Assembly: GCF_900167395.1 (NCBI RefSeq) | Contig: NZ_FUWK01000034.1 | Span: 1 to 31,762, forward strand | DNA length: 31,762 bases | Source of the DNA: Nitrosomonas europaea | GTDB taxonomy: Bacteria; Pseudomonadota; Gammaproteobacteria; Burkholderiales; Nitrosomonadaceae | Direction of reading: 5' to 3' | Shown: positions 1-23,376 of the stretch, one piece after another | Position numbering within the stretch: position 1 is the first letter of the stretch | How the letters are laid out: each line of letters opens with the position of its first letter | Translations under genes and position numbers: made by a program | The notes under the pieces: model-generated | The model's database searches: none | Seen by the model: the letters and a program-made list of their open reading frames with translations, nothing else | What the model was told of the DNA's origin: nothing

Positions 1-314
1 CCCAGTGGCTCACTGAAGCACTGGACCAGCAAAACCTTCAACTCATTACTCCCCTCAGGAAAAACATGAGGCCTGTGCCTCGTACCAGGTTCGAGAAAGT
101 CATTCTGCGTCGCCGTTCCCTGATTGAAACCGTCTTTGATGAATTGAAGAATCTTTGCCAGATCGAGCATACCCGACACCGCTCTCTCTTCAATTTTATC
201 GTTAACCTAATGGCTGGTATCGTCGCTTACTGTTTGTCCGATAACAAACCAACTTTGAATCTGACCAGGGTCAACAGCCTGGCTAAAGCTTAAGGGCTTA
301 TCCCGAACTCAGGT
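1..314 (+). mobile_element. Right-hand end of an IS982-family insertion sequence; the element continues beyond the left window edge
   Basis: The transposase frame is open from base 3 to the TAA at 291-293. The adjacent EAL-domain ORF breaks off within about 20 nt of the transposase stop. The sequence CCCGAACTCAGGT at 302-314 looks like a terminal repeat. The exact terminus (about 310-320) is not determined. Confidence 0.65.
3..293 (+). CDS. IS982-family DDE transposase, C-terminal part (5' end outside the window)
   Basis: There is no stop upstream of the listed Met at 66 (QWLTEALDQQNLQLITPLRKNMRPV...). The motifs LITPLRKNM and RRRSLIETVFDELKNLCQIEHTRHRS, plus the hydrophobic tail LMAGIVAYCL, are typical of IS982-family transposases. 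Confidence 0.7.
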   Translation, partial: QWLTEALDQQNLQLITPLRKNMRPVPRTRFEKVILRRRSLIETVFDELKNLCQIEHTRHRSLFNFIVNLMAGIVAYCLSDNKPTLNLTRVNSLAKA

Positions 315-2824
315 TAAATAGAGAGCGCCTGGTTGATGGCTGGTAATAACTCCGGATCGTTAAAGGCATGTGCCGACAAATTGATAGACAGACTGATTCG
401 GCTGATTCCTGTCTGGTTGATTCTGGCAGCAAGTGCAATTGCCTTGCGAAGTACCAGATGATCGATCCTGTGGATAAGCCCGGTATGCTCTGCTGCACGG
501 ATGAATGCAGCCGGAGAGTGAATCGTTCCATCTTCATCCCGCATGCGCAGCAAAACTTCGTAATAATGAATCGATCTGTCGCTCAGGGACTGGATAGGCT
601 GCAGATAAAGCAGATACTGATCATGCATATGGGCATATTCAATTTTCTCTTTCCAGTAAACCAGCGTATGCACACGCTCTCGCGCCTGATCGATACTGGA
701 ATATACATGCCAGGTTCCACGCCCCGTTTCCTTGGCCTGATACATGGCAAGGTCAGCGGCTGCTAGTAGATCGTGAACATTGTTTCCATGTTCGGGAAAG
801 ATCACGATTCCGATACTGGCCGAAATGCTGTGTGTTCTGCCGTTGAATGACAGTTGCGTTTCTCCCAGGCGGGCAAGAATTTTTTTTGCAACTTCGATGG
901 CTGCTTCAGGGGTGATTTCCGGTAAGATGACAGCGAATTCGTCTCCACCCAGCCGCCCGGCAATATCAGCGGTGCGAATCGTGCGAGACAGCATGCCAGC
1001 GACCATTTTCAACATGGTATCACCCGCCTGATGGCCGCTGGTATCATTTACGAACTTAAACCGATCCAGATCGAAAAACAGCAGTGCTCCGGGGTGCTGG
1101 TATCTTTCTGCCCAGCCGAGTATCTGCTCCAGTTCTTCGCTGAATCGACGACGGTTATACAGATTTGTCAATGGATCGTGATCTGCTAGCCACGCCAGAT
1201 GGCCTTCCACACGTTTGTATTCGGTAATGTCCAGCCCAACCGACAGAATTGCCGAAGGATCATCCTTGGATTGCCACGTCAGGCGTGAATGAAGCCAGGC
1301 AATGTGTCGTTGTGAATCATCTTTACATATCACGACAGCTTCATGTCGTAATTGATCACGCTGTCCCTGGCGAATTTCCAGCAAATGCAGATCGAGATTA
1401 TATTGCTCGCTATCGGATGCAAGCAGTTCCAGAAAATGTCTGCCTTGCAGCTCACTTTCGCTGTAGCGGGTCAGCATCTCCCCGTAAGCATTGAGCATCA
1501 CTATCTTTCCACTGGCATCCTGTGTCAGAACGATGACCTGTGCAGTATCCAGCAGATTTTCGATGAAATCTTTCTCTTTGCTGAGTTCATCACGCTGGCT
1601 GATCAGCATTTTGGTGCGGTAGGCAATTTTTTCTTCCAGGCTCTCAAGCTTATGAGAAAGTGCCAATGATGCATCATGCATGAGGTCGATTTCATCTTTG
1701 AAGAGACGCTTTTTCCAGCGGGAGGCAAGCGTACTGCGAAAACTGCCGAAACCGCCACCGGCCAGCAGTGGCATGATGGAAACAATATGCTTGAGCAGGG
1801 ATAGCGATGTGGTCAGTATGCTGAACAGGATGATTCCAGAAAGTAACAAACTGCCCAGACCAATGACGATGATACGCCAGATAGAATCCTGAATTGCCCG
1901 AACGGTATCGGTTACTTCAGTGATAATAACCAGCTGTGCCTGGTCAGCTATACGAATTCCCTGCAGAGGCAGCAGCTTTATCTGATGATACCGGCTGCTC
2001 CATTTATTCTGAATACCTTGACCGATGATTTTCAAATCGGGGTAGGTCATGGCTGCTTTTTTCAGAATAGCAAAATTTTTTTTGCTGTCCGTCATGGCTG
2101 CGATATAAACATCCCATTCGGGGATACTCATGCTGCCATTATTGAATGATTCACCTTCATGTGCGGGAATAAGCGTGTTCTTGACAAACAATCCGATATC
2201 CGAGCCCGATGCACGTTTGAAATTTAGGAATACGTCGACCAGGGATGATCCGATGACGATAGTGCCGACACGTGTACTTTCAACCAGTAAAGGCTCGATT
2301 ATGTACTGAGTGCAGCTCTCCACACATATCATCAGAGTAGCAGGCTGTTCATGCAGGTTGACTTCACGTATATGATCAAGAATGAGGTTATCGCGATAGT
2401 TGTTGGCTTCGAAATTACCCCACTTTGCCAGGAGCGAATCAGATGAATCATAAAAGCGCACATCTTCAATATCATTTTGAATCTGAAACAACGTCCAGTA
2501 CCGATCAAATGTATCGAATACTTTATCCGCCATTCCTGATAGAAGACTCGGTTCCATATCCTTCAGGTAGGGAATGATCCTGACCAGTCCGTGCAAATTT
2601 TCAGAATTACGACCAATCAGGCTTTCTATTTCTCTGGCATAGCGCCGATACTTTGCTTCTCTTTCCTGATCGATACTGTCAATCAGACTTTGATAATTGA
2701 TGACACTGAAAATTGTTACCACAAGCAGTAGAATCAGACTGCTCAGAAGTGAAATTTTCCAGTTTAATCCGATAAATATTTTTGAAGCTTTTTTACCGGC
2801 TTTTTTTTGAATATCTGAATCCAC
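314..2824 (-). CDS. Membrane sensor diguanylate cyclase/phosphodiesterase (periplasmic Cache-like domain, TM, coiled coil, PAS, GGDEF, EAL) with a truncated EAL domain
   Basis: Two TM segments flank a periplasmic region of about 280 aa. A PAS-like region is present. The GGDEF motif is intact (RLGGDEFAVILPE), with an RxxD I-site (RTAD) five residues upstream. The EAL domain starts at YLQPIQ...YYEVLLR but ends about 100 aa in (…INQALSI*), directly at the IS982 junction. Confidence 0.85.
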   Translation of the reverse strand: MDSDIQKKAGKKASKIFIGLNWKISLLSSLILLLVVTIFSVINYQSLIDSIDQEREAKYRRYAREIESLIGRNSENLHGLVRIIPYLKDMEPSLLSGMADKVFDTFDRYWTLFQIQNDIEDVRFYDSSDSLLAKWGNFEANNYRDNLILDHIREVNLHEQPATLMICVESCTQYIIEPLLVESTRVGTIVIGSSLVDVFLNFKRASGSDIGLFVKNTLIPAHEGESFNNGSMSIPEWDVYIAAMTDSKKNFAILKKAAMTYPDLKIIGQGIQNKWSSRYHQIKLLPLQGIRIADQAQLVIITEVTDTVRAIQDSIWRIIVIGLGSLLLSGIILFSILTTSLSLLKHIVSIMPLLAGGGFGSFRSTLASRWKKRLFKDEIDLMHDASLALSHKLESLEEKIAYRTKMLISQRDELSKEKDFIENLLDTAQVIVLTQDASGKIVMLNAYGEMLTRYSESELQGRHFLELLASDSEQYNLDLHLLEIRQGQRDQLRHEAVVICKDDSQRHIAWLHSRLTWQSKDDPSAILSVGLDITEYKRVEGHLAWLADHDPLTNLYNRRRFSEELEQILGWAERYQHPGALLFFDLDRFKFVNDTSGHQAGDTMLKMVAGMLSRTIRTADIAGRLGGDEFAVILPEITPEAAIEVAKKILARLGETQLSFNGRTHSISASIGIVIFPEHGNNVHDLLAAADLAMYQAKETGRGTWHVYSSIDQARERVHTLVYWKEKIEYAHMHDQYLLYLQPIQSLSDRSIHYYEVLLRMRDEDGTIHSPAAFIRAAEHTGLIHRIDHLVLRKAIALAARINQTGISRISLSINLSAHAFNDPELLPAINQALSI

Positions 2825-2853
2825 GAAGGCAACGGATTTGATTAAGTGATGAT

Positions 2854-4089
2854 TCAGAAACGGTAGGAAGCCTGTACAGCGAACAGATTCCAGTTTTTTC
2901 CGGTATGGGACATATCGGGATTATCTAGCGGAGATAGCCAAGCCGTGCCGTTGATCCGATGATATTCTGTACTCAACATGATGGCAGGCGTAATATTCCA
3001 GCGTAATCCTACCGTGATATCCTTAGCGTAGTAATTATGTGCCGGGTATAGGTAACCGGTACTGGCAGAAAATTTTTTACCACTACGGTCTTTCCTATTA
3101 GTGAACAACAAATCATAACGCAACACTGCTTCCCAGTTTGGATAGAACCGATAGACGCCTTGCAGATAAAAACTTTCTCCCGTAAAACTTTGCTGAAAAG
3201 CTGCATGGTTACCAAAATCTTTCCATGCGAGATGGCGTAGCGCATATTCAGACGTTATGCTCCAACGCTCTGCGTTGTATTGAGCGGATAAAATTAAAGG
3301 GGAGAATCTGAATGAGCCATTAAGTAGAGTATCATTGTAACCTGGGCTATACCCAACATTAGCTTGGGCTCCACTTATTGCCAGACGGAGTTTTCCATCT
3401 GCCTGCTCATAAAGTATCCGACCAATATATGATAACTTTGTTTTAAGATCGCCACGGTGTTGTAATGATCGTAACACCGATATCTCAGTATCATGACCGT
3501 CTACTTGGGGAAAAGCAGCTCCAAATTGTACGGTAATATTTCCCCAGTCCGCGCGCGATTCTCCGTATACCTGAATCCCATCTGAAGCTAGTGCAAGATT
3601 GCGAGTACGATCGAAATAGATTGACTGAGGCAGCAGTATGCTCGGGCGAGTAAATGGTACATCGCGTGTATCGTTATAAAACCCGAATGGATTCTTCATC
3701 CTGCCCAGACGTATGCCGATTTCAGCTGCAGGTGTATTGGCGAAATTATAATCTAGAAAACCGAAATCAATGTGGATGCCACCGTTGCTGCCTTCTCCAG
3801 CTCTGCGATGGAGTAATTGACCGGATAATTGCAGTTTTGGTGAGGGACGCAAAGAAGCCGTCAGGCCAATTTCCCGGAAATCGAGACTGCCAGAATCGTT
3901 ACTGTGACCAAAAAAATTGTTCTTGTTCGTCTTGATGTAGCCCTGGCTCAGAAAACCATTCAGTTTGAACAGATCCAGGTTTTGTAATTTAGGCAGCTCT
4001 TCCGCCAGAACGGATCTGGCCAGAAAAATCAGTGACAGGGCTGAGCTGCCTAAAAAGAAAGCTATAGTTGAAAATCTGCTGTTACTCAT
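2854..4089 (-). CDS. Outer-membrane beta-barrel (porin-like) protein of unknown family
   Basis: It has a signal peptide (MSNSRFSTIAFFLGSSALSLIFLARSVLA), alternating beta-strand-like sequence and a C-terminal ...QASYRF aromatic terminus typical of OMPs. I prefer the start at 4089 because its ATG sits inside the GATGAGTAA stop region of the upstream gene (8-nt overlap). The track start at 4116 is the alternative. Confidence 0.65.
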   Translation of the reverse strand: MSNSRFSTIAFFLGSSALSLIFLARSVLAEELPKLQNLDLFKLNGFLSQGYIKTNKNNFFGHSNDSGSLDFREIGLTASLRPSPKLQLSGQLLHRRAGEGSNGGIHIDFGFLDYNFANTPAAEIGIRLGRMKNPFGFYNDTRDVPFTRPSILLPQSIYFDRTRNLALASDGIQVYGESRADWGNITVQFGAAFPQVDGHDTEISVLRSLQHRGDLKTKLSYIGRILYEQADGKLRLAISGAQANVGYSPGYNDTLLNGSFRFSPLILSAQYNAERWSITSEYALRHLAWKDFGNHAAFQQSFTGESFYLQGVYRFYPNWEAVLRYDLLFTNRKDRSGKKFSASTGYLYPAHNYYAKDITVGLRWNITPAIMLSTEYHRINGTAWLSPLDNPDMSHTGKNWNLFAVQASYRF

Positions 4090-4537
4090 CGATATGAACG
4101 ACCTGGACACTATCATTAATCATACTTCCACTCAAATAACCAATTGCACCCGGTGTTGATGCAATTCTGGCACGCATTTCTTCTTCAGTATGTACGACAA
4201 ACGGTGCTTGTCCGGTTCCGGAATAGACCATGCGATCCCACGCTGATCGCAATTGGTAAGGAAAAATATTCAGTTTCTGTTTTGTAAAAGTGCTGTGTAA
4301 TGGCGCGTCATCCGGCAAAACGAACACTCTGACGGGCAACCCATCCTGCCAAGTTCTGAGACGCATGCCAAAAATGGAACGTAACAGATTTTTGGAAAGA
4401 TAGTTCGAGTTGACGCCGGGATGGGTGATAACTTCGACCGAACCGTCAAAGGATAAGGCATTACCTGCGAAAGAAAATGTGACCAGCAGGGTAAGAAAAA
4501 GAATACCTCGGAGCCAGTAACTAAAGAATCCCATCAC
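4082..4537 (-). CDS. Small secreted periplasmic protein resembling a phosphate-binding-protein (PBP-like) domain
   Basis: It has a signal peptide (MMGFFSYWLRGILFLTLLVTFSFAGNALS). The mature region (ITHPGVNSNYLSKNLLRSIFGMRLRTWQDG...PGAIGYLS) resembles PstS/PBP-like substrate-binding folds. This assignment is by eye only. Confidence 0.55.
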   Translation of the reverse strand: MMGFFSYWLRGILFLTLLVTFSFAGNALSFDGSVEVITHPGVNSNYLSKNLLRSIFGMRLRTWQDGLPVRVFVLPDDAPLHSTFTKQKLNIFPYQLRSAWDRMVYSGTGQAPFVVHTEEEMRARIASTPGAIGYLSGSMINDSVQVVHIDE

Positions 4538-4564
4538 AATGACGAGTGTTATCGATACTGATGG

Positions 4565-5356
4565 TTATTCCGATATATAAACATTATCGGTATACGCTGT
4601 TTTAAGCGTTTTCTGATGTATGCAGGCCAGGTTCATGGGCCATATTCTTCCGTGATCGGTAATAAGCTCCCAGAGTGAACGATGATCCTGATACATTCGA
4701 TCAAGTAAATCAGGCAGATAAAGATAATAAGGAGTACGAAGACCATGATAATCGGCTGGTGGGCCGATTGGATTCATTTGTAAGCTGTAAAAACCTAGTA
4801 ATTTGTTTAAAGCTGGCTCCATGGCCGAAATTAAATGGTAGATATTATTTCGTGCACATAATTGTATAAGTCCGACAACAAGCCCGAGCATCGGATGCGG
4901 AAAGCGACGGCGTTCCTGTGCTTTGCATCCTATTTCAGTAGATTGTGATAGCATATTGCGCTCGCCTTTTCGTTTGAAAAAATCGCTGAGAATAGCAAAG
5001 CGCGATACTTCAGTAGTATGTTTCCGAGACGATGAATCCAGAACAAAGCCAGGATAAAAATGAGTGTTGAGCTCTGTCGGAAATTTATCCATAGGATCGA
5101 GCGGATTGGGCAGGATCAACCTGGTTGTGCCAATGAAAGTATTGGTTGGCCGATGGCGCAATAAAAAATGGATTGAGTGACTGTCATATTGATCACTCTC
5201 CAACTCGTTTGGATAATTGTTAGTGTCAAACCCGGGAATGACATTGTGAACACACAAAATCCGATAGCGTAAATCGAACACCGTTTTAAGTAATTCCGGT
5301 GTGTCGGCATCGATGATTTCGAAATACTGATGAAAAGCTGCTTCGATATCGTTCAT
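4565..5356 (-). CDS. PEP-CTERM/exosortase system-associated acyltransferase (GNAT-fold, LuxI / N-acyl amino acid synthase-like; TIGR03694-type)
   Basis: Family-typical N-terminus YFEII.A.TPELL..VFDLRYRILCVH...ESDQYDSHSIHFLLRH...IGTTRLILP. An EVSRFAI motif is analogous to the autoinducer-synthase core. An AGGAAA RBS lies 5' of the ATG. Confidence 0.75.
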   Translation of the reverse strand: MNDIEAAFHQYFEIIDADTPELLKTVFDLRYRILCVHNVIPGFDTNNYPNELESDQYDSHSIHFLLRHRPTNTFIGTTRLILPNPLDPMDKFPTELNTHFYPGFVLDSSSRKHTTEVSRFAILSDFFKRKGERNMLSQSTEIGCKAQERRRFPHPMLGLVVGLIQLCARNNIYHLISAMEPALNKLLGFYSLQMNPIGPPADYHGLRTPYYLYLPDLLDRMYQDHRSLWELITDHGRIWPMNLACIHQKTLKTAYTDNVYISE

Positions 5357-5454
5357 ACTTTTCCTTGATCAGGCTGTATTTAAGAAGATCTGAGATTCAG
5401 ATCAGATTTTATTACTGGAATCAGTTTCCAATTCAGGGAATATATGAACGATAT
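5346..5454 (-). promoter_or_regulatory. Structured 5' leader of the acyltransferase gene, with an anti-start-codon helix enclosing two hairpins
   Basis: A perfect 12-bp inverted repeat joins ATATCGTTCATA (5346-5357, covering the start codon at 5354-5356) to TATGAACGATAT (5443-5454). Inside it are the hairpins GATCTGA-gat-TCAGATC (5387-5403) and TGGAA-tcagt-TTCCA (5416-5430). Confidence 0.5.
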
Positions 5455-5572
5455 GACTTTATATTTTTTCCCTGGGCACCGGCATCATCGTTATTTGTTA
5501 TATTTTTCCGTATATTTACATGTTATTTAGCCTGAATTCAGACAAACATGTCGTTAAAATAAAACGTACTTT

Positions 5573-5601
5573 ACTATACTTGTGTCGTCAAAATATGACA
5601 A
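5573..5601 (-). promoter_or_regulatory. Candidate sigma70 promoter for the acyltransferase operon
   Basis: The minus strand reads TTGTCA-17 nt-TATAGT (-35 at 5596-5601, -10 at 5573-5578). This would give a leader of about 210 nt that contains the structured element. Confidence 0.4.
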
Positions 5602-5729
5602 GCCGATGTTTGTTGAATAATGGTTGACTGTTTTCGATATCGGGAGCTCATTTATCGAATGACCACGGCTTTTTTACCGGTATCAATTCTCCCTTTTATT
5701 TACTGCCGAAATTCAGAATCAGATAAAAA

Positions 5730-7589
5730 TTAAACTTTTATCGGGTGATGCTGTTTGAACCAATATTCCAGCATCATCAGCAGCCATACCATCGTGCCGT
5801 GATAACTGGCATGTTCATGAAGATGCTGATCAAGCAGCTGGTCGATGAAATCGGTGCGTATGATGTTGCGTGATTTGAGGTCACTCAGACTGTCTGCAGC
5901 AATTTCCCGCAAAGGTCTGTGTGTCTGGAGCCAGACACCGAACGGCAAGCCAAACCCCTGTTTTTGTTTGGTAATGATCTCATCCGGTAAAAAACCACGT
6001 AACGCCTGTTTAAAGAAATAACGCAACTGCGTTCCTTTCAATTTCTGTTCAGGAGGAAGCGCGAGAGAAAAAGCGAGTATTTCATCATTAACAAACGGGA
6101 AAGCCACTTCCATGCCGGCCAGATGACAGGCCTGGACAACTTTTGGGAAATCATTGTCTGCCAGTGTGAATTTCCAGTCGAAGGCAAGCATGCGGTTGAT
6201 CAGGCTGCGTGCATGAGACACATCCTGATAGGTTCGTTCAATCAGCAAAGCGGGTTGCGCTGTATCGATCTTTGCCAGTAATTCCGGTGAAAATACAGTT
6301 TCAAACCCATAATGTGCCAGCAGATTATAAGTCTCCATGCGATGAGGCATGGGAACCGTTGCCTGTGCGACATAGCTTCGCGCCTTGCGCAGCAGTTTGG
6401 GTCCTTTGTTCTCTGGAAGAGACAAAATAAAGGGGGAAAGCAGGTAATTTCTCAGGGGTGCCGGGATTTTGTCGTAAAGTGAAAAAATATATTGTTTTGC
6501 GTAACGTACATTACCACCGAACAGCTCATCACCCCCATCGCCACCGAGTAGCAAGTCGAGTCCGTCATTTCTGGCCATGCGCCCGCAGTAATAAGCCGGA
6601 AGCGCCGATGCATTACCAAAAGGTTGATCGAAGACCGAAGCAATCAACGGGATCGTTTCTACGACATCGTCTGGTGTGACATAGTACTCATGGTGATCGG
6701 TCGCGAAATGCCGGGCGGCAATACGTGCGTAATGCATTTCATCGTAGCCGGTGGCTTCAAAGCCGATTGAATAGGTTTTGGCGGGTTCACCCGTGACTTC
6801 TGTCAATATCCCTGCCAGAGTGGAACTGTCTGTCCCCCCGCTCAGAAATGTACCTGCTTTCTGACCCTGTACCGCTTCACTGACACTTTTTCTGAGCAGG
6901 GAGAGAAATTCCTGTTGAAGCTCGGGGAAGGGGCGTTTTATATCTTCATCAAACCGGATTTGCGTATAACGGCCGATTTCCGTGTGGCCATCGTGGAAAT
7001 GCAGATACTCACCAGGAAGCAGGCGCTTCTGGGCCAGATAGATGGTATCCGGCCCCGGTATCATGTGAAAGTAAAGGTAGTTGAGCAGCCCTTGCGGATT
7101 GATTTCAGTATTGGCCCGGGGATGGGTGAGCAGGGCATCGGCAGAAGTGCCAAATAAAATTCCGTCGTCACCCAGCGACTGGTAATAAAGTACGTGTGTA
7201 CCCAGTGGATCGATGGCCAGAGCAACTTCACGTGCATGGCTGTCCACGATGCAGCAAACGAATTCACCAGCGAGCTCGGAGAAGGCTTGCCTGCCTTTCT
7301 GCTTCCACTGATCTGCAAGTGCCGCTGCCATTCCTCTGGCATCGATGGCTGTCTGCAGATCTGTATTCCGGGATTTTATCCTTCCCCAGATCCCTACCAG
7401 TAAGCCTTCTTTTTCATACAGATGCGAATGGCTTGTTTTTGCGGCGACGGAAAGAGCGGCATTGCCCTGTACCGCTGTCTGCACAGGATTGCTGTCAAAA
7501 CGAATCAGCGAACCGGTCATGCGATCAATGATCTGCTGATTTTCGATTGCCAGGTGATCTGCTCCCAGCCAGCCACATATTCCGCTCAT
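5730..7589 (-). CDS. Asparagine synthetase-like glutamine amidotransferase (exosortase A system-associated amidotransferase 1 type, TIGR03108-like)
   Basis: It has an N-terminal Ntn glutaminase domain (MSGICGW...) and a C-terminal PP-loop synthetase domain (FLSGGTDSS). A GAGGAG RBS precedes the ATG. Confidence 0.85.
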   Translation of the reverse strand: MSGICGWLGADHLAIENQQIIDRMTGSLIRFDSNPVQTAVQGNAALSVAAKTSHSHLYEKEGLLVGIWGRIKSRNTDLQTAIDARGMAAALADQWKQKGRQAFSELAGEFVCCIVDSHAREVALAIDPLGTHVLYYQSLGDDGILFGTSADALLTHPRANTEINPQGLLNYLYFHMIPGPDTIYLAQKRLLPGEYLHFHDGHTEIGRYTQIRFDEDIKRPFPELQQEFLSLLRKSVSEAVQGQKAGTFLSGGTDSSTLAGILTEVTGEPAKTYSIGFEATGYDEMHYARIAARHFATDHHEYYVTPDDVVETIPLIASVFDQPFGNASALPAYYCGRMARNDGLDLLLGGDGGDELFGGNVRYAKQYIFSLYDKIPAPLRNYLLSPFILSLPENKGPKLLRKARSYVAQATVPMPHRMETYNLLAHYGFETVFSPELLAKIDTAQPALLIERTYQDVSHARSLINRMLAFDWKFTLADNDFPKVVQACHLAGMEVAFPFVNDEILAFSLALPPEQKLKGTQLRYFFKQALRGFLPDEIITKQKQGFGLPFGVWLQTHRPLREIAADSLSDLKSRNIIRTDFIDQLLDQHLHEHASYHGTMVWLLMMLEYWFKQHHPIKV

Positions 7590-9019: not shown

Positions 9020-10599
9020 GATTCTCCTGCCTGGAAAGCCTGCTGAAATTCACCAGCCAGCATTTTCCGGTCTATTTTTCCATTCGGATTACGGGGCAGA
9101 CTGGTTTGTCTCAATTCGATCAAAGCGGGTTGCATGAAAGCAGGCAAGTGCTGTTTGCAAGCCGATTGCAGCACATCCCGGTCGAGCGCGAATCCGGTTC
9201 TGGGAACGGCCACGACCACGATAGCCTGGCCGAGTGTAGGGTGGGGAACCCCGAAAGCGGCCGCTTCAGCAACTTTTTCGGTTGCATAAATGACTTCTTC
9301 CACTTCAGTCGGGCTGACGCGGTAGCCGGAGGTTTTGATCATATCGTCGCGTCGGCCGATGAAATACAGATAACCTTCATCATCCATGCGCACCGTATCA
9401 CCCGACCAGACCGCAAGTTCGGGAATGGTCAATCCGGATTGACGGGGAGTCAGCGGCCGGAAGCAAGCAGCCGTTTTATCCGCATCGTTCCAGTAACCCA
9501 GCGAAACGAGCGGCCCGCGGTGTACCAGTTCACCCGGTTCACCCGGTGCGCAATGGGAACCATCCTCGCGCAGTACCATGACTTCGGCATTAGGAATCGC
9601 TTTGCCCATGGAATCCGGTCGTTTGTCCACTTCCCCGGGAGGGAGGTAAGTTGAGCGAAAGGCTTCGGTCAGACCATACATCAGAAAAATCTGTGTATCG
9701 GGTAACGCACTGCGCAAATGTGCCAGAGTCGCGCGGGGCATTGCGCCGCCCGAATTAGTGATGTAGCGCAGACTCTGCGCATCTTTCCAGTCCAATTGCG
9801 CCAGCTGCGCCCACAATGGCGGCACTGCAGCCAGTCCGGTCACCTGTTCCTGTTTAACCGTGGTGAGGATATCGCGCGGCAACAGGTAATTCATCAAAAT
9901 GGCAGTGGCTCCGGTGTAAAACGCAGTATTCAGTTGATTCAATCCATAGTCGAAGCTGAGCGGCAACACTGCCAGTATCCGATCATCAGGCCGGTTATTC
10001 AGATACCGGGAAACACTTATGGCGCCTGTCACCAGATTGCGATGGGAGAGCACCACTCCCTTGGGTTTGCCGGTACTTCCCGAGGTATACAAAATTGCAG
10101 CCATATCGCTGTCGATGCAGTCCGGTAACCGTGCAGCATCTGAAAGTGTCTGTGTCTGTCTCCATGAAACGACATTCAATCCGGGAAGTGATGCTTTGTG
10201 CAGATCACCGGTGATGATCACAGTATGCAGATCATGACATTGCGGTAATACCGGGCTGAGCAGATCGAGTCTCTCGGCAGAGGTTATCAATATCCGGACA
10301 TTACAGTCTTTGAGGATATAGGCGACCTGTTCGGCTTTGAGCAGCGGATTGACGGGAACGAACGCGCCTCCTGCCGCGGATGCGCCAAACAGGGCAATGA
10401 CCGTTTCGAGTCGTTTCTCGAGATAGACGGCCGAACGTTCTCCGCGACCCAGCCCGAGCGTATGCAAAGCGCTGGCAATCGATTGCACTGCTTCAGATAA
10501 TGCCGCATAGGAGAGATGCCGTTTCTGATCGATCAATGCTGTGGAATCGGGATACCGGGCAGCTGACTGATAAATCAGCTCATGAAAAAGATTGGACAT
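9016..10599 (-). CDS. AMP-forming acyl-CoA ligase / adenylating enzyme (exosortase A system-associated type, TIGR03098-like)
   Basis: It has the AMP-binding signature LYTSGSTGKPKGV, plus YGLTE and a C-terminal PRNPNGKIDRK. Its length is typical of the ANL superfamily. Confidence 0.85.
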   Translation of the reverse strand: MSNLFHELIYQSAARYPDSTALIDQKRHLSYAALSEAVQSIASALHTLGLGRGERSAVYLEKRLETVIALFGASAAGGAFVPVNPLLKAEQVAYILKDCNVRILITSAERLDLLSPVLPQCHDLHTVIITGDLHKASLPGLNVVSWRQTQTLSDAARLPDCIDSDMAAILYTSGSTGKPKGVVLSHRNLVTGAISVSRYLNNRPDDRILAVLPLSFDYGLNQLNTAFYTGATAILMNYLLPRDILTTVKQEQVTGLAAVPPLWAQLAQLDWKDAQSLRYITNSGGAMPRATLAHLRSALPDTQIFLMYGLTEAFRSTYLPPGEVDKRPDSMGKAIPNAEVMVLREDGSHCAPGEPGELVHRGPLVSLGYWNDADKTAACFRPLTPRQSGLTIPELAVWSGDTVRMDDEGYLYFIGRRDDMIKTSGYRVSPTEVEEVIYATEKVAEAAAFGVPHPTLGQAIVVVAVPRTGFALDRDVLQSACKQHLPAFMQPALIELRQTSLPRNPNGKIDRKMLAGEFQQAFQAGES

Positions 10600-10641
10600 C
10601 GATCAGTATGTACAAGTCATGAAATGATTGGATTCTACAGC

Positions 10642-12000
10642 CTATTTGAGCCCGTGACGATTCATCAGGTCATAAAGAGTGGGGCGGGTAACCCCTAGAA
10701 GCTCTGCTGCCCTGGCAACATTGCCATTTACCCGTGCCAGCACTTTGATGAGCATCTCGTGTTCAGCCTTGTCTCTGACTTCACGCAAGGTGACTGGCGC
10801 AAAACTATCGGCTGCCGGTTGTAATCCGAGATCGGCAGCAGTGATTTGTGAGCCTTCTGCCATGATGACTGCGCGTTTGATGCAGTTTTCGATTTCGCGG
10901 ATATTTCCCGGCCAGGAATAGCTGCCGATTGCATCCAGTGCATCCTGGCTGAAATTGAGGGATTGGCGTTTTTCTTTTACCCGGAACTGGTTTTTGAAGT
11001 GATGCGCAAGTAAGACAGCGTCGCCGATACGATCGCGAAGCGCCGGAATATGGATACTGATTTCACACAGACGATAATACAAATCCTCGCGGAAGGTACC
11101 GGCCTCGATCATTTTTTTCAGGTTCTGGTGGGTTGCGCAGACGATTCGTACATCTACCGGGATCAGCTCCCTGCCACCGATGCGTTCGATGACGCGCTCC
11201 TGCAGGAATCTCAGCAGTTTTGCCTGTAACGATAGCGGCAAATCACCGATCTCATCCAGGAAAAATGTACCTCCCTGTGCCAGTTCGATTTTGCCTGGTG
11301 TCTGTTTGACTGCTCCTGAGAAGGCACCTTTTTCATAGCCAAACAACTCTGCTTCCAGCAGGGATTCAGGAATGGCCGCACAATTGACTGCAACCATGCG
11401 TTTACTGTTCCGGTCGCTCAACTGGTGAAGTGCCTTGGCCAATACTTCCTTGCCGGTTCCACTTTCACCCAGCAGGGTGACCGTAACGTCGGAAGACGCG
11501 ATACGCTCGATTTGCTGGCATATTTTGACCATACCAGGATCATTGGTGATGAGTCCGGGAATGGCAGTGCTTGAAGAAGATTTCAACAGTTCGCGATTTT
11601 CGCGCTGCAACCGGTGCAAATAGAACGCCCGGTTTACGATCAGGCTGAGCACGTTGGCATCGAGAGGTTTCTGGTGAAAATCATATGCACCCATATTGAT
11701 TGCTTTCAGTGCATTTTCGTGATTCTGGTTGCCCGTCAGCACGATTACCTTGGTATCAGGTGCCACGGCAAGAATCTGCTGCAAAGTTGCCAATCCTTCC
11801 GTTGCACCATCCGGATCAGGTGGCAATCCCAAATCCATGGTCACGACAGCAGGCTCATGCCGGCGGACTTGTGCAAGCGCACTTTCACGATCTGAGGCAA
11901 CAGCCACATTGCAATCATCGAAACTCCAGCGTAACTGTTTCTGGAGCCCTGGATCATCTTCTATTACGAGCAGTTTTTTTTGTATCTGATTTGCATTCAT
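10642..12000 (-). CDS. prsR: PEP-CTERM-box response regulator transcription factor PrsR (NtrC-family sigma54 enhancer-binding protein)
   Basis: The receiver domain has the characteristic MDLGLPPDPDGATEGL insertion. The AAA+ domain carries GESGTGKE, the sigma54-contact loop GAFSGA and FFLDEIGD. A C-terminal Fis-type HTH is present (AAELLGVTRPTLYDLMNRHGL). Confidence 0.8.
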   Translation of the reverse strand: MNANQIQKKLLVIEDDPGLQKQLRWSFDDCNVAVASDRESALAQVRRHEPAVVTMDLGLPPDPDGATEGLATLQQILAVAPDTKVIVLTGNQNHENALKAINMGAYDFHQKPLDANVLSLIVNRAFYLHRLQRENRELLKSSSSTAIPGLITNDPGMVKICQQIERIASSDVTVTLLGESGTGKEVLAKALHQLSDRNSKRMVAVNCAAIPESLLEAELFGYEKGAFSGAVKQTPGKIELAQGGTFFLDEIGDLPLSLQAKLLRFLQERVIERIGGRELIPVDVRIVCATHQNLKKMIEAGTFREDLYYRLCEISIHIPALRDRIGDAVLLAHHFKNQFRVKEKRQSLNFSQDALDAIGSYSWPGNIREIENCIKRAVIMAEGSQITAADLGLQPAADSFAPVTLREVRDKAEHEMLIKVLARVNGNVARAAELLGVTRPTLYDLMNRHGLK

Positions 12001-12070
12001 GTCATTGCTGCTAAAGGTTCCGGGTGGATAACGAAGTTATTTTGTTGCATCAAGTACTCTCAGGGATATT

Positions 12071-12110
12071 GAAATCAAAACCGGTCGTTTGTTACGGGTT
12101 GAACAACCGG
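12071..12110 (-). terminator. Rho-independent terminator downstream of the acylase gene
   Basis: The minus-strand RNA forms a 9-bp stem, CCGGUUGUU...AACGACCGG (one G-U pair), at 12081-12110. It is followed by UUUUGAUUUC (12071-12080). Confidence 0.55.
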
Positions 12111-12244
12111 GGAAATCTTTTGTATTTCAAGGTTTTGTTCCTCTCGAAGCAAGTGAGCAATGAAATAGACAATGTAAGTTTTATCGACACCTTTTCGCAG
12201 ATATTAAGCCAAACTGGATCAGACGGGAAGAAAGTAGCGATCCA

Positions 12245-14626
12245 TCAATGATCCGCTCTGAATTCGGCCGGATGGAGATACAAAATCTGTTGTGCTGCGC
12301 CGGGCATGAATGATACTCGCCTTCCTGCCACCCAATCGGAATGACCGCTGCCGTAGTAAGGAGAAAGTGGATGGCCGCTCTGGCCTCCCGGCATTTCGAA
12401 ATAACCCTGTTCTTCCTCGCCAGGTGCCACGACGAAGCGCAGCGAAGCACCAAAATCGGGTGCCTGAACACGTGGCATGTGGTGATCGCCGGGTAACTGG
12501 TCGGCAGGCATGTTCAGCCATGCGGCAATCCATGACGGCAGGGCGCGACTGAACGGGTGCCGGATATCGGCGGTATTTTCTTCTCCCCAGTTGCGTGCCA
12601 CTATGCCGCCAGGCTGGGCTTGCATCTGTTCTGCTATCCGGCGTGCGCATGCTGCCAGCATGCTGTCCCAGTCACTGTCATCGGCGGGCAATAAATGAAG
12701 CGGCCGTTGTTCGATTAGTTTCCATACCGCATGTTCGGCCTGGCTAAGGCGTGGTATTTCAAATTCAGGATAATCAGATTTTACTTTGGCAGTTAAACCG
12801 CTGAGCACCTGTTTCATGACTTCGAGACGAAAACTGCGTACGATCCGGTAAGCAACTGATTGCACAGAAGCATGTCCGTTCCAGTCAAGCAGCACTTGTT
12901 GCATTTCGTTGCGCCATACGGTGGATGGTGTTTTTTGCAATATTTCATCCAATAGTTGCTTCCAGCGAGCGAGAAGCAGTGCACGATCATCCAGTTGGAT
13001 GGCGAGCAGATCTGAGGGTGAAAAGTGATCGTGCGCATATAATTCATCCCGGATCTGCCGGCTGCGGGCACCGAGCTCATATCCACCATCTCCCAGCTTG
13101 CTTAATAAGGCGCCATCGATCATTCTTGAATTGCCGTTCCAAAGGCGCATATCCGGTGGATTGATAACCAGCGGGTAATCAGCAGGTGCAAGCCAGCCAT
13201 TCCAGCCTGTAGACTGTTTGCTCCAGTCTGCAGGCAGTCCCGGATCATAGTTACCTGTGCGCTGGGGAATACGGCCGGCAATCGTCCAGGCGATATCCCC
13301 ATTTTTGCTTCCGGCAATGAAATTTTGTGCCGGGATACCCATGTTCCAAGCAATAGCTGCCGCTTTCTCCAGGTTGTCAGCCTGTTCCAGTTCGACGATA
13401 TCGAAATTGACCGCACCAGGCTGGTGCGCAGTCCAGACCAGTGCCAGAGGAGTACCGTCAAAATCCTGTGCAAGGATTGGTCCCCATTCGGTTTCGCGGA
13501 TTTCGAGGGTTTCGTCGGGCGCACCCCGCACATGCAATGTTTCACGCCATATTTTTACAGATTTCCATTCACCCTGGCTGATATAGCGAGCGGGATTTTC
13601 CGGATCGGGATTTACTCTGACCCAATCGGCAAAATCGCCGTAAGAATTGGTGAATCCCCAGGCGATATGGCGGTTGGAGCCAGCAACGATAGCCGGTGTA
13701 CCCGGAAGACTGACGCCGATCACATCGATCTTTTGGTTTGCATGTCTGGCATCCGGGTAAATCAGCCGGGTACGAAACCATAAACCGGGTACTCGCAAGG
13801 TCAGATGCATATCGTTGGCCACCAGTGCACTGCCACTCGTCAGGGGTCCTCCCACGGCAAATCCATTGCTGCCAACCGAGGGAGATTCCTGGAAACCGTT
13901 ATCCGCTAAAGCCTGTTTGCTGGTGGAACGTAAATCGAAGTCGGTAGCAGAGGGGTAAGGTGGCCACTCAAAATAACTGCCGTCCAGTGGTGCATCCCAC
14001 TCGCCTCCACTGGCCGTCAGGAACCGATAGGCAGATTCCGGCAGGGAAGCATGCATCATCGACAATCCCAGTTCACGATCAAAGTTGTTTCCCTGCAGCG
14101 TCATGTACATGGCCAGTACGATCAGCAGGCTGTCTTCACTTTGCCAGGCACGGGGCATGGTTTGCGTAAGCAGGTAACCAAACTGTCTGATCCTGAGACT
14201 GTCCAGTCCCGTATTGACGCCATCCCGATAAGCCTCGAGCAAACGGAGCTGATCTTGTGGCAGTATTTTCAGCATGGTCTGTGCCCGGGCACGCATGCGA
14301 TGCACCCGCGCTTTGCGATCAGCCGGCAACGCAACCGTACCGAATAATTCTGCCAGTTCTCCGGCAGCCTTGCGGCGCATCAGGTCCATTTCCAGGAAAC
14401 GTTCCTGTGCATGGATAAAACCCAGTCCACGCGCCAGATCGAGCCGATTCCCGCCATTCAGCGTCACCGTGCCGAGAGCATCGCGTTCGACTGTTACGAT
14501 ATCGGTTAGCCCGGGAACGGATTGTTCTCCTTCATAAACGGGCAGGCTGCCTTTTAAAAGCGACCAAGCCGTAAGTAATATGACCATCACAAGTGCGGAC
14601 AGAAAAAACAGGGATTTACGCAACAT
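12245..14626 (-). CDS. Penicillin acylase family (S45 Ntn hydrolase), PvdQ/QuiP-like N-acyl-amide (AHL) acylase candidate
   Basis: It has a signal/anchor sequence (MLRKSLFFLSALVMVILLTAWS). The length of about 790 aa fits an alpha-spacer-beta architecture. A beta-subunit nucleophile context (GSNGFAVGG) is present. Confidence 0.8.
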   Translation of the reverse strand: MLRKSLFFLSALVMVILLTAWSLLKGSLPVYEGEQSVPGLTDIVTVERDALGTVTLNGGNRLDLARGLGFIHAQERFLEMDLMRRKAAGELAELFGTVALPADRKARVHRMRARAQTMLKILPQDQLRLLEAYRDGVNTGLDSLRIRQFGYLLTQTMPRAWQSEDSLLIVLAMYMTLQGNNFDRELGLSMMHASLPESAYRFLTASGGEWDAPLDGSYFEWPPYPSATDFDLRSTSKQALADNGFQESPSVGSNGFAVGGPLTSGSALVANDMHLTLRVPGLWFRTRLIYPDARHANQKIDVIGVSLPGTPAIVAGSNRHIAWGFTNSYGDFADWVRVNPDPENPARYISQGEWKSVKIWRETLHVRGAPDETLEIRETEWGPILAQDFDGTPLALVWTAHQPGAVNFDIVELEQADNLEKAAAIAWNMGIPAQNFIAGSKNGDIAWTIAGRIPQRTGNYDPGLPADWSKQSTGWNGWLAPADYPLVINPPDMRLWNGNSRMIDGALLSKLGDGGYELGARSRQIRDELYAHDHFSPSDLLAIQLDDRALLLARWKQLLDEILQKTPSTVWRNEMQQVLLDWNGHASVQSVAYRIVRSFRLEVMKQVLSGLTAKVKSDYPEFEIPRLSQAEHAVWKLIEQRPLHLLPADDSDWDSMLAACARRIAEQMQAQPGGIVARNWGEENTADIRHPFSRALPSWIAAWLNMPADQLPGDHHMPRVQAPDFGASLRFVVAPGEEEQGYFEMPGGQSGHPLSPYYGSGHSDWVAGRRVSFMPGAAQQILYLHPAEFRADH

Positions 14627-16983: not shown

Positions 16984-18108
16984 TCATGCCATGGAGCTGA
17001 TCGTCCTGCGGAAGCGGGCAAGTGCCAGCGTGAAAAAAATACTGCCAATCGCAAGCAAAGCGAGAAATTCCGGCCAGACGATACCAAAATCTGCACCACG
17101 ATAGAGAATGGCCTGAGCAAGCGAGACGAAATGGGTGGTTGGTGCTGCAAGCATGAGGTACTGCACTGCCTCGGGCATACTTTCACGCGGTGTCATGCCA
17201 CCGGACAGCATTTGCAGTGGCAGCAGAATAATGATCATCAGCAGCCCCATTTGCGGCATTGAACGTGCTACCATGCCAAGGAAAATGCCCATCGAGGTCG
17301 TGGCGAACAGATGTAATGTCATGCCCATGACGAACAGCCCGATCGAACCTTCGATCGGTACGTTGAGCAAATCCTGTACGACAAAGACGAGTGAGGCAGT
17401 AGCCACGATGGCGACGACCAGACCCATCGACCATACTTTGGCCAGCATGATCTCGAAAGGGGTCAGTGGCATGACCAGCAGATGTTCGATAGTGCCGTGC
17501 TCACGTTCACGGATCAGTGCTGCGCCGGTGAGGATGATGGATAGCATGGTAATGCTGTTGATGACTTCCATCACCGAACCAAACCATACCGAGCTCAGAT
17601 TCGGATTGAAGCGTGCACGTATTTCAAGTTCTGCCGGCCAGGCAGGAAGCATCCGATAACGTTGAGAGAATGCGGTGACTTCACCCGTAACGATATTCTG
17701 GATATAGCCGCTGCCGATAAAGGCTTGTGACATACGCGTCGCATCGACATTGAGCTGAATGGCAGGCCGGCGTCCAGCCAGTACATCGCGTTGAAAATCA
17801 GGCGGAATATCGAGCACGAAAGTGTACAGACCGGTATCCATACCCGGATCGGCAGCGTACTGCTCGATGATGAGTGGTGGCAGGAAATGGGGAGGATAAA
17901 AGGCATCGATGATACGCAATGACAGAGGTGATCGATCTTCATCGATGATGGCGACAGGGGCCTTGTGCAATGATTCCGGCAGGCCGGTGGCAGTCAGGTA
18001 CACCTGGCCGGTGAACGCGAACAGAATCAGGAACAGCATCAGTTTGTCACGTCCCAGGCTGCGCAATTCCTTGATCCCAAGGTGAAAGGCATTGAGCAGG
18101 GTGAGCAT
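16984..18108 (-). CDS. yhhJ: ABC-2 type transporter permease, YhhJ-like
   Basis: It is 374 aa, with an N-terminal TM, a large periplasmic loop and a C-terminal cluster of five TMs (ABC-2 architecture). It lies immediately downstream of the RbbA-like gene, as in the E. coli yhiI-rbbA-yhhJ operon. Confidence 0.75.
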   Translation of the reverse strand: MLTLLNAFHLGIKELRSLGRDKLMLFLILFAFTGQVYLTATGLPESLHKAPVAIIDEDRSPLSLRIIDAFYPPHFLPPLIIEQYAADPGMDTGLYTFVLDIPPDFQRDVLAGRRPAIQLNVDATRMSQAFIGSGYIQNIVTGEVTAFSQRYRMLPAWPAELEIRARFNPNLSSVWFGSVMEVINSITMLSIILTGAALIREREHGTIEHLLVMPLTPFEIMLAKVWSMGLVVAIVATASLVFVVQDLLNVPIEGSIGLFVMGMTLHLFATTSMGIFLGMVARSMPQMGLLMIIILLPLQMLSGGMTPRESMPEAVQYLMLAAPTTHFVSLAQAILYRGADFGIVWPEFLALLAIGSIFFTLALARFRRTISSMA

Positions 18109-18110
18109 TG

Positions 18111-20882: not shown

Positions 20883-21949
20883 TGCGGTAACCTGACTTCC
20901 AGCTCAGCGGGCCATACTGCTGCAGGATCGAGTTTGACATAAGCCATACCGGGTAAGCCGGTCTTGACCTGCTCAAGGTGTTGCTTCAACAACTCGGGAT
21001 CGATTCTTGCCCTGACACGAAACATCAGCTTCAGGCGTTCACTTTCGGTTTCCACCGTTTTCGGCGTAAATTGAGCAACACTGGCGACAAAGCTGGCTTT
21101 GGCCGGAATCACATAACCTGGCGCAGCATCGAGCACAATATGGATGTCGCTGCCGAGTGCTACTTTACCGGCAGCTTCAGCAGGCAGGAAGAAAGTCATA
21201 TAAACATCAGAAAGATCGACCATGCTGAGGACACGGCCGCCCACGCCCAATACCTCACCGGGTTCTGCCACACGATACTGCACACGGCCATCACGTGGTG
21301 CCCGCAATTCACTGTCATCGATATCTGCCTGCAAGCGTGCAACCGTGGCCTGGGCCGCGACAATGACCGATTGTGACTCTATCACCTGTGATTTTGCCGC
21401 TTCGATACTGGCATTGGCTGCGGCAACCTGAGCCTGCGCTGCACTGACAGCAGCTTGTGCACTCAATACGCGTGCCTGGTCATCATCCAGTTCCTGCTGA
21501 GCTGAGGCGCCTTCACCAGCCAGCATTTGCGTACGCTGCAAGCGTTTGCGGGCAGCATCCAATTCCGCTTGACGCTGGGCCACGACCGCGCGTGCAGCCG
21601 TCTGCTCGCTCTGACGCTGTATCACGATGGATTGTGCTGTCTGGTGGGCATGTTCAGCCCGGCGAACCTGTGCTTCCGCCTCGATCTGCTGAGCGCGCAG
21701 TACCTGTGTATCCATGCGTGCCAGTACTCTGTCGGCTTGCACAAAATCGCCTTCTCTTGCCAGAATTTCGATAATACGGCCGGGAGCCCTGGTAGCAATA
21801 TCGATTTCGGTTGCTTCGATGCGGCCATTGCCTGCCACGATCCCGGCAGGCAGACCCGCCGGACGAAGTACTCTCCATGCGACGATGATCGTGATGATGA
21901 CGAGGGCCGCAAGGAGATAAGTCAGTACCGGTTTCACGCGTTTATTCAT
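20879..21949 (-). CDS. yhiI: HlyD-family periplasmic adaptor, YhiI-like
   Basis: It has an N-terminal anchor and a long Ala/Gln-rich coiled coil. The conserved blocks [35 protein letters not shown] and [29 protein letters not shown] match E. coli YhiI as I recall it. Confidence 0.8.
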
Positions 21950-23376
21950 TGTTTCTCCGAGATGATTTCCACTCCACCTCCCAGTGTTTTATAAACTGTA
22001 ATCAGATCAGTCGAGACTTTCGTTTCAGAACGGGCAAGATCGATCTCGGCACTGTAAAGTGTGCGTTGAGCGTCCAGCACATCCAGAAACGATACGGTCC
22101 CTACCTGAAAGCGTAACTGTGATAATCGGACCGCTTCACGCAGATCCATCACAGAACGAGCCAGGGCTTGTCGCCGAATTTCTTCCTTGAGATAGCGTGT
22201 CAGGGCCGTTTCGGTTTCCTGTAATGCTTCCAATACCGTTTTCTCAAATGTCAGATAGGTTTCCTGCTGCCGTGCATTGGCCAGATCGATTCCTGCCCGG
22301 ATACGACCAAAATTGAGCAGCGGCTGTAAGAGACCGGCAGCAGTGTTATAGGAAAAGGCGGCTGACTTGAACAATGCATCGAGTTCGGTATTGCGCAGAC
22401 CCAGGAAGGCTGATAGCGACAGCCGCGGGAACAGTTCTGCGATTGCAGCACCTTGCAGCGCTGTTGCAGCAGCGAGCCGGCGTTCGGCAATATGAAGATC
22501 AGGGCGGTGGCGAATGGTTGCCACAGGTGAGGCCAGAATGGTACGTCCGGGGGCCATGGGTACGGCATCCGGTTCACTCAGTGCAGCAGCAAGTGCGCCT
22601 GGCTGCTGTCCCGTCAACATCTCCAGCTGCCGTAATGCAGCAACCAGGCTTCCTTCCAGATCAGGAATCTGAGCCCTGGTGGTTTCGGTCTGTGCCCGTG
22701 CTCGTACCGCATCATAGCGGGTACCAACGCCCGCCTTGAAGAGTTTCTCGGTTAATTCCTGGGTAGTCTGCTGAGCAGCCAGGTTTGCGCGCGTGATACG
22801 TAACTGATTCTGGAAACTGCGGTATTCGATATAGCTGCGTGCCAGATCGGCTGTCAGTGTGACCAGTGCCTGGCTGTACTGAATATTGACGGCATCCAGA
22901 TCGGCAGAAGCAGCTTCCAGCTGGCGACGCAAACGGCCGAACAGATCGATTTCCCATAAGGCATCGAATCCCAACTCGAACAAGTTGAATTTGATACCAG
23001 GTGCAAATCCGGGAAAGGGATTATGACTACGCTGGGCATTGGCTGTTGCGTTGACACCCGGGAACAGCCCGGCACGAATGGCACTGCGCTCAGCGCGGGC
23101 CTGGTCGATACGGGACAGTGCAATTTTGAGATCGAAATTGTCTGATAGCGCCTGATCTATCAGGCTATCCAGCCGGGGATCATTGAAATTTTTCCACCAT
23201 TCCTTCAATACCTGCTGATCGATCGGCTGCACAGACAGACTTTGCTGTTCAACAATCTCTTCTTTTTCAGCCTGCCAGGAATCGGGAATGCCAGGAAGAG
23301 GAGGGCGGTAATCCGGACCGACAGCACACCCGCTCAGAATGACTGCGATGAGAAACCAGCCAATCTTGTCTATCAT
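21946..23376 (-). CDS. Outer-membrane efflux lipoprotein, NodT/OprM family
   Basis: It has a lipobox ([12 protein letters not shown]) and the two-repeat OMF architecture. Its stop overlaps the start of the adaptor gene by 4 nt. Confidence 0.85.

Follow-up and report, generated by a model that had tools for sequence, protein, structure and literature searches.

Several bacterial systems place an enzyme of cyclic di-GMP (c-di-GMP) metabolism under the control of accessory proteins in the cell envelope. In YfiBNR (TpbB) of Pseudomonas aeruginosa, an outer-membrane component and a small soluble periplasmic regulator are combined with an inner-membrane cyclase. MbaA and ScrC are GGDEF-EAL enzymes with dCache-like periplasmic domains, each switched by a periplasmic binding protein that is encoded nearby (PMC8050422, PMC4488946). 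In ScrABC of Vibrio parahaemolyticus the signal synthase is encoded in the same operon (PMC8050422, PMC4488946), and the accessory protein together with the signal turns the enzyme from a cyclase to a phosphodiesterase (PMC4488946, PMC8050422). NspS-MbaA of Vibrio cholerae acts on biofilm via c-di-GMP, and its binding protein gene adjoins the gene for the dCache-like enzyme (PMC8050422, PMC5646818). In PruA-PruR-DcpA of Agrobacterium tumefaciens, a small-molecule enzyme and a periplasmic accessory protein balance a dual GGDEF-EAL enzyme (PMC4488946). Here we describe a locus of related design in a 31,762-nucleotide (nt) contig of Nitrosomonas europaea (NZ_FUWK01000034.1, assembly GCF_900167395.1), which was analyzed over its whole length and is referred to below as the window. 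In this locus, a gene for a TIGR03694 acyltransferase is followed by genes for a small protein resembling periplasmic binding proteins (the PBP-like protein), an outer-membrane barrel protein (OMP) and an inner-membrane sensor with dCache_3, GGDEF and EAL regions. We propose that the last three genes form a self-contained and widely conserved envelope signaling cassette, in which the general mechanism would be that of a bifunctional c-di-GMP enzyme controlled by accessory proteins, a reading to which we assign roughly even chances.

The initial annotation, made from the letters of the window, had described three co-directional genes behind the acyltransferase, and this layout was confirmed (Table 1). 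The acyltransferase stop (4565) is separated by 27 nt from the GTG of the PBP-like gene (4537), and the OMP stop (2854) by 29 nt from the sensor GTG (2824). The PBP-like stop and the OMP start overlap by 8 nt, provided that the OMP begins at ATG 4089, where GATGAGTAA is found; the overlap sequence is ATGAGTAA. Envelope targeting was likewise upheld, in that a single hydrophobic segment was found at the N-terminus of both the PBP-like protein and the OMP, and two such segments surround approximately 270 amino acids (aa) in the sensor. The three proteins are thus predicted to reside in three envelope compartments. The acyltransferase, besides its assignment to TIGR03694 (the PEP-CTERM/exosortase-associated acyltransferases), also matches Acetyltransf_5 and FeeM. 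The closest relatives of the window are Nitrosomonas genomes, with the proteins of one comparison locus (L001; loci are numbered in this way throughout) being 91-100% identical.

In gene content and order the locus corresponds to ScrABC: both group the genes of a synthase, an accessory protein of the periplasm and a GGDEF-EAL enzyme with a dCache-like domain. The component families differ, and the likeness would therefore be one of functional analogy, not homology. ScrA is pyridoxal-dependent, whereas the synthase here is of the GNAT type and makes N-acyl amino acids; ScrB, an SBP_bac_3 protein of ~36 kDa, has both lobes, whereas its counterpart consists of one lobe of 14 kDa. An outer-membrane component is missing from ScrABC, whose sequence relationship to the cassette is limited to the GGDEF and EAL domains. 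The cassette shares with NspS-MbaA the adjoining genes for binding protein and enzyme, but NspS is a complete polyamine-binding protein of the PotD type and that system has neither a dedicated synthase nor an outer-membrane protein. PruA-PruR-DcpA, similar in its pairing of a small-molecule enzyme with an accessory protein, differs in its pterin signal, in the fold of PruR and in having no outer-membrane partner. YfiBNR had been put forward as the best-known analog; its three-tier layout across the envelope does fit, although the other three systems are closer. YfiB is an OmpA/Pal-like lipoprotein where the cassette has a barrel, YfiR is a DUF4154 protein where the cassette has a PstS-like lobe, and YfiN lacks an EAL domain and its model is matched through GGDEF only (160.9 bits against a cut-off of 325). 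The cassette has neither a DUF4154 repressor nor an OmpA/Pal-like lipoprotein: none of 100 PBP-like family members matched DUF4154 at E<=1, and no YfiR was among the Foldseek matches listed, in line with the earlier statement that YfiB and YfiR have no relatives among the parts. Neither the PBP-like protein nor the OMP is represented by an NCBIfam model, and the curated families and publications that were searched contained no description of the trio, which agrees with its having been called undescribed. By analogy, the cassette would operate most like ScrABC and NspS-MbaA while being a member of neither, nor of YfiBNR. New in it are the half binding protein, the obligate outer-membrane partner and the link to N-acyl amino acid synthesis.

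To assess conservation, we drew on 80 species-representative GTDB genomes, ten divergent genomes or contigs and 80 metagenome loci, the last two sets being annotated with purpose-built hidden Markov models (HMMs). The counts given here were made over 167 fetched loci and refer to those with enough sequence to be testable. Loci whose PBP-like protein is at least 50% identical to that of the window were assigned to a close (Nitrosomonadaceae-like) clade and the remainder to a distant clade. The order acyltransferase, PBP-like protein, OMP, sensor was found in all 80 GTDB loci long enough, from Nitrosomonas, Nitrosospira, Nitrosovibrio and a few unclassified metagenome-assembled genomes. An absence of conserved synteny had been set beforehand as a refuting test of the module; instead, the trio was co-linear in essentially every locus of sufficient length. 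The PBP-like gene was directly followed by the OMP gene in 150/151 loci, and a homologous dCache_3 sensor was present in 114/118. A TIGR03694 gene was found in 81/82 loci of the close clade and in 3/10 of the distant clade. The co-occurrence with GGDEF sensors and with TIGR03694, which the initial annotation had proposed as a check, was observed in several gene orders, and about 100 of the fetched loci contain the cassette together with the lipid-amino-acid synthase. The PBP-OMP pair is the obligate core of the cassette, and the sensor is its usual, not its exclusive, partner; the dCache_3 protein has no GGDEF domain in L083 and no EAL domain in L086.

A search for divergent members located the PBP-OMP pair in Gammaproteobacteria. 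Orthology in the distant loci is indicated by 30-42% identity for the OMP and by 21-26% identity for the N-terminal domain of the sensor (E 1e-21 to 1e-31). The genes flanking the cassette in these loci are unrelated housekeeping genes, and no recurrent extra neighbors were found there. This indicates that the cassette moves as a unit. Over all fetched loci, the TIGR03694 gene takes at least four arrangements: it lies upstream of the trio, behind the sensor gene (in L121, L127 and L146), inside the trio with the OMP gene on one side and the sensor gene on the other (in L152), or upstream in divergent orientation (in L082, Marinibactrum halimedae, Cellvibrionaceae). Six synthase neighbors representing all four arrangements (L082, L111, L127, L133, L146, L152) scored 165-251 bits, above the TIGR03694 cut-off. 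Within the cassette, the PBP-like and OMP genes overlap by ~8-35 nt in many loci and the OMP-to-sensor spacing is 24-33 nt almost everywhere, while the gap between acyltransferase and PBP-like gene is 5-30 nt in Nitrosomonas and 110-220 nt in Nitrosospira. Genes for a ligase, a decarboxylase and an amidotransferase adjoin the four-gene unit in Nitrosomonas only and are absent from the Nitrosospira loci. Thus, the conserved unit consists of four genes and not of a larger upstream cassette, and the connection to an upstream signal cassette made in the initial annotation holds for the TIGR03694 gene but not for these three. Other neighbors were noted in single loci or small groups. A DUF4126 gene and an uncharacterized open reading frame (ORF) of 145-147 aa precede the PBP-OMP pair in L081, L087 and L170. 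Outside Nitrosomonadaceae, some neighbors are related to exosortases or to lipids: L084 has a gene for an XrtH-associated protein (11977-12585) right after the sensor and one for the fatty-acid cis/trans isomerase CTI (4087-6450) before the PBP-like gene, and a PEP-CTERM-domain protein (6654-7535) follows the pair in L168 (Methyloprofundus).

The more probable start of the PBP-like protein is ATG 4534, giving 150 aa, and not GTG 4537; this choice is based on the lengths of its relatives. It has a single N-terminal hydrophobic segment by hydropathy, a signal peptide without a lipobox. Its match to PBP_like_2 (PF12849) covers profile positions 99-187 of 267 and, at 20.2 bits, lies below the Pfam cut-off of 27; across the family, 95/100 members match this model, weakly (best E 1.2e-7). 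A search of the PDB with the family profile matched PstS1 (4exl, E 4.8e-5). We then compared a structure model: an AlphaFold prediction from 23 close homologs had a mean predicted local distance difference test (pLDDT) score of 53 and was discarded, while one from 100 diverse sequences reached a pLDDT of 89.1. The best 45 PDB matches of the latter in Foldseek were all phosphate-binding proteins (best E 1.5e-8), with ~125 of 260 residues aligned. The template modeling (TM) score was 0.62 normalized by query and 0.36-0.40 by target. Since the score is high on the query and low on the targets, the model identifies the PBP-like protein as one lobe of a two-lobe PstS-type phosphate-binding protein. 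It shares the one-lobe fold and weak sequence similarity with PstS-type proteins of PBP_like_2, but is half their size and does not form the two-lobe Venus flytrap of that family. Calling the protein PBP-like was therefore apt for one PstS lobe and misleading for a full binding protein. The family comprises 1542 clusters at 50% identity (E<=1e-10), and its best-scoring 150 are mostly 140-190 aa long. In the HMM alignment to PstS1 4exl, the invariant SGTG motif of the family is placed beyond both the expected anion loop and the helix behind it. Residues W63, H81, W100, G107, P112 and Y134 are invariant as well. The PBP-like gene is not adjacent to ABC transporter genes.

The OMP was described at first as a protein of 420 aa, which is correct for the longest ORF; its relatives are 408-411 aa long, so ATG 4089 is the likely start and the probable product has 411 aa. 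It has one N-terminal hydrophobic segment, corresponding to a signal peptide, and ends in YRF, with neither a lipobox nor an OmpA C-terminal domain. The window protein itself had no Pfam or NCBIfam match. Its orthologs weakly match BBP2, Porin_O_P, OMP_b-brl, OmpA_membrane and Porin_4, of which Porin_O_P is the best, at positions 235-346 of 370 (19-32 bits, C-terminal ~110 residues). Some orthologs exceed the Pfam cut-off for this family (26-32 bits against 20.9), and some relatives carry the NCBI names OprO/OprP. A profile of the OMP alignment run against PDB sequences returned chance-level matches only, with no porin, OprP or OprO among them, and the window OMP does not give the full-length match expected of OprO/OprP (PF07396). 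The signal peptide, the C-terminal aromatic beta-signal and the weak barrel-family matches are those of outer-membrane beta-barrels in general. We therefore describe the OMP as a probable porin-like barrel that is not demonstrably a member of OprO/P. Its most conserved block, in an alignment of 45 non-redundant sequences, spans ~40 residues (~134-172).

The sensor consists, in order, of a first transmembrane segment, a dCache_3 domain, a second transmembrane segment, a PAS domain, a GGDEF domain with an RxxD I-site, and the first ~104 residues of an EAL domain. By hydropathy the membrane segments lie at ~16-49 and ~314-350. The periplasmic domain lies between them and exceeds the Pfam gathering threshold, which places it in dCache_3, a family for which no structure was listed and no ligand noted at its definition (PMC4822843). 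A phmmer search of this domain against the PDB gave no match. The GGDEF motif is intact, with the I-site RTAD five residues upstream (RTADIAGRLGGDEF), as in active cyclases; the domain is therefore active-looking, and its RxxD I-site is retained. The EAL region is incomplete. Its EVL motif is present, and the EITE, DDFG, KID, EFVE and QGY segments of a complete, active phosphodiesterase are absent; the remaining part was looked for elsewhere within the window and was not found. The sensor has 836 aa, compared to about 957-988 aa in its orthologs, and the intact L001 ortholog, with 972 aa, has a complete set of EAL motifs (EVL, EITE, DDFGVG, KID, EFVE, QGY). In the alignment with L001 DNA, homology is lost right after CTCTCTA(T/C), at window ~317/318. 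Beyond this point, at 3-290 on the plus strand, the window encodes the ~96 last residues of an IS982-family transposase, in a frame +3 translation that matches DDE_Tnp_1_3 (E 2.4e-22) and covers profile positions 165-242 of 243 of the IS982 transposase model NF033520. The insertion element thus provides the stop codon at 314. As read from the sequence, the IS982 insertion destroys the phosphodiesterase half of the sensor in this genome while the cyclase domain and I-site remain, and the truncated protein could act as a cyclase at most. The Cache-GGDEF-EAL assignment of the initial annotation was thus accurate for the dCache_3 and GGDEF domains; it overlooked the PAS domain and the cutting of EAL by the element. 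Orthologs retain the motifs expected of a dual-function c-di-GMP enzyme (GGDEF in 97/98, the I-site in 91/98, E(A/V/I/L)L in 97/98 and DDFG in 97/98). The sensor also looks damaged at other loci: it has 656 aa only in L031, is divided between two ORFs in L111 (6037-6783 and 6765-9236), and is represented by inverted, fragmented GGDEF/EAL pieces in L128, which may reflect recurrent loss or assembly error.

In the mechanism that we propose for the cassette, the small PBP-like protein and the barrel would act as an outer-membrane/periplasm pair that captures or reports a signal located in the envelope. The small protein would dock on the dCache_3 domain of the sensor and shift the enzyme between cyclase and phosphodiesterase modes, a step modeled on ScrB for ScrC, NspS for MbaA and PruR for DcpA. 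Where a synthase is present, its product would be the signal, and the four genes would make up a circuit from self-produced signal to c-di-GMP that feeds PEP-CTERM/exosortase-linked aggregation. Because the cassette recurs with the synthase, it is a candidate receptor for the TIGR03694 product. That an N-acyl amino acid is in fact the ligand is a tentative proposal, for which the chances are clearly below even, and we regard as similarly doubtful the wider idea that synthase, single-lobe protein, barrel and dCache_3 GGDEF-EAL enzyme constitute a previously unrecognized cell-to-cell or autocrine signaling system.

Several observations weigh against this mechanism or restrict its reach. The PBP-OMP pair occurs without a sensor in L081, L097, L169 and L170 (a sulfur-oxidizing symbiont and related gammaproteobacterial loci), and in L087 an OmpR-type regulator and a histidine kinase (9223-11192) follow the pair in place of the c-di-GMP enzyme. 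This implies that the pair has a function independent of the sensor; the earlier view of the two proteins as sensor accessories describes their usual partnership, but not these sulfur-oxidizer lineages or the kinase locus. Seven of the ten testable distant loci have the trio but no TIGR03694 gene within about 7-8 kb, and the synthase product is thus not a universal ligand. The longer gap behind the acyltransferase in Nitrosospira indicates that co-transcription with the synthase is not universal either. A single lobe, as modeled, could not enclose a ligand as a two-lobe binding protein does, and the original suggestion that the 151-aa protein relays occupancy is thus conjectural. By its sequence, the OMP can be placed no closer than porin-like barrels in general. 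Finally, we infer the protein contacts, the ligand, the effect on c-di-GMP and the role of the barrel alike.

Among other explanations, the one that fares best is a switch that works by sequestration, as in YfiBNR or RcsF, and needs no small-molecule ligand, and we consider it rather unlikely. Here the barrel would hold the small protein, or be plugged by it, and a perturbation of the outer membrane would release or capture the small protein and alter repression of the sensor; the synthase would be relevant only through a lipid product that alters the outer membrane. The obligatory pairing of the PBP-like and OMP genes, which overlap and are translationally coupled, speaks for such a switch, as does the occurrence of the pair without the sensor. 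Protein-protein contact also suits a one-lobe protein better than ligand enclosure, and the conserved OMP block is consistent with a partner-binding site. However, the parts are not homologous to YfiR or YfiB, and a chemical signal is favored by the recurrence of a small-molecule synthase gene beside the cassette irrespective of gene order. The dCache family is, moreover, usually ligand-binding, although dCache_3 has no known ligand (PMC4822843).

It is improbable, in our estimate, that the barrel and the small protein instead export or handle the synthase product, carrying an N-acyl amino acid as far as the outer membrane or across it, with the sensor an independent neighbor. An amphiphilic product must cross or enter the envelope, and genes for a barrel and a periplasmic partner do lie directly downstream of the synthase in Nitrosomonadaceae; yet most of the distant loci (7/10) have the trio without the synthase, and the periplasmic domain of the sensor co-varies with the pair as an orthologous subfamily at a constant spacing, which is hard to explain for an unrelated neighbor. 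Equally improbable is a pair for sensing or uptake of phosphate or another anion, in which c-di-GMP metabolism would respond to phosphate, pyrophosphate or a phosphorylated compound reported by a porin like OprO/P and a protein derived from PstS: although the nearest recognizable relatives of both accessory proteins are phosphate-handling families (PstS, and Porin_O_P with its OprO/OprP names), the porin match is confined to a C-terminal stretch and is absent in the window OMP, the PDB profile search gave no OprP or OprO, one PstS lobe makes a two-lobe phosphate site impossible, SGTG aligns to a non-equivalent PstS1 segment in the profile alignment, and the surroundings of the module show no recurring pst or pho genes.

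Returning to the cassette as a signaling unit, we examined how it may be expressed. The strongest candidate promoter, of sigma-70 type, was located in the 373-nt gap that precedes the acyltransferase gene and is the best consensus match in 1-6000 (10/12 positions), although such sites are no commoner than in shuffled sequence; it may drive the four-gene unit. No sigma-54 site with up to two mismatches was found in 5357-5729, although the window encodes the response regulator PrsR, and whole-window counts of such sites were at chance level. At the other junction, the initial annotation had named an independent terminator and promoter between 4537 and 4565 as grounds for giving up its claim. None was found: the 27-nt gap is too short for a terminator plus promoter, and a hairpin at 4546-4530 was rejected as a terminator, being weak (3 G-C pairs) and overlapping the PBP start codon. 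A palindrome upstream of the acyltransferase (GATCTGAATCTCAGATC, 5387-5403) was also rejected as a conserved operator, as it is not kept even in the closest relative. A different, 16-bp perfect palindrome, ATCATGG(C/T)(G/A)CCATGAT, was observed ~86 nt upstream of the acyltransferase start in L034, L037, L058 and L123, which belong to one Nitrosomonas lineage, and a related site lies at -126 in L120. The window lacks this 16-bp palindrome, which is possibly a regulator-binding site.

The other genes of the window are listed in Table 1. The gene for the PEP-CTERM response regulator PrsR (TIGR02915) adjoins that of a penicillin-amidase/Ntn-hydrolase protein, upstream of the synthase cluster; the latter matches PF01804 and, weakly, PvdQ, and its position is conserved in N. 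europaea/eutropha-type loci (L001-L011, L020, L023) and not in Nitrosospira. The asparagine-synthase-like gene is a variable member of the cluster, as several Nitrosomonas lineages have no such gene between decarboxylase and synthase. Downstream of the cluster, two efflux systems, an OEP/HlyD/ABC-2 transporter set and a TetR-regulated MexXY-type resistance-nodulation-division pump with an outer-membrane channel, and a fragment of a TonB-dependent siderophore receptor are all ordinary.

Table 1 Positions of the cassette, its domains and the surrounding features in the window.
Feature	Position	Strand	Details
IS982-family element, right end	1-317	+	transposase C-terminus at 3-290; junction ~317/318
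Sensor gene	314-2824	-	ORF of 836 aa; start GTG 2824
EAL (PF00563) fragment of sensor	323-634	-	residues 731-834; EVL motif; profile positions 7-109 of 236
GGDEF (PF00990) of sensor	716-1186	-	residues 547-703; E 8.9e-48
PAS domain of sensor		-	residues 421-540; between membrane and GGDEF
dCache_3 (PF14827) of sensor	1907-2644	-	residues 61-306; E 3.9e-12; 46.7 bits, cut-off 25.7
OMP gene	2854-4116	-	longest ORF, 420 aa, from ATG 4116
PBP-like gene	4082-4537	-	ORF of 151 aa from GTG 4537
TIGR03694 acyltransferase gene	4565-5356	-	295.9 bits, cut-off 111.95
Candidate sigma-70-type promoter	5573-5601	-	TTGTCA, 17-nt spacer, TATAGT
Asparagine-synthase-like gene	5730-7589	-	276 bits; cut-off of XrtA/PEP-CTERM amidotransferase model 817
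PrsR gene	10642-12000		TIGR02915
Penicillin-amidase/Ntn-hydrolase gene	12245-14626	-	PF01804, E 4e-134
Efflux system	16984-23376	-	
Efflux system	23456-29930		
TonB-dependent siderophore receptor fragment	30818-31462		

If the proposed circuit is correct, the cassette would provide the first receptor for bacterial N-acyl amino acids, and would explain why their synthases track PEP-CTERM/exosortase aggregation systems, including those of ammonia oxidizers without LuxI. It offers a concrete candidate for this role, consisting of a small soluble protein, a barrel and an enzyme with a measurable output. It would also represent a third architecture among accessory-protein-controlled c-di-GMP enzymes, one that combines half of a binding protein with a dedicated partner in the outer membrane, and would give the uncharacterized dCache_3 class its first functional context. 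Since the system is universal in the sampled Nitrosomonadaceae loci, it may bear on the aggregation of nitrifiers and on their biofilms and granules in soil and wastewater treatment.

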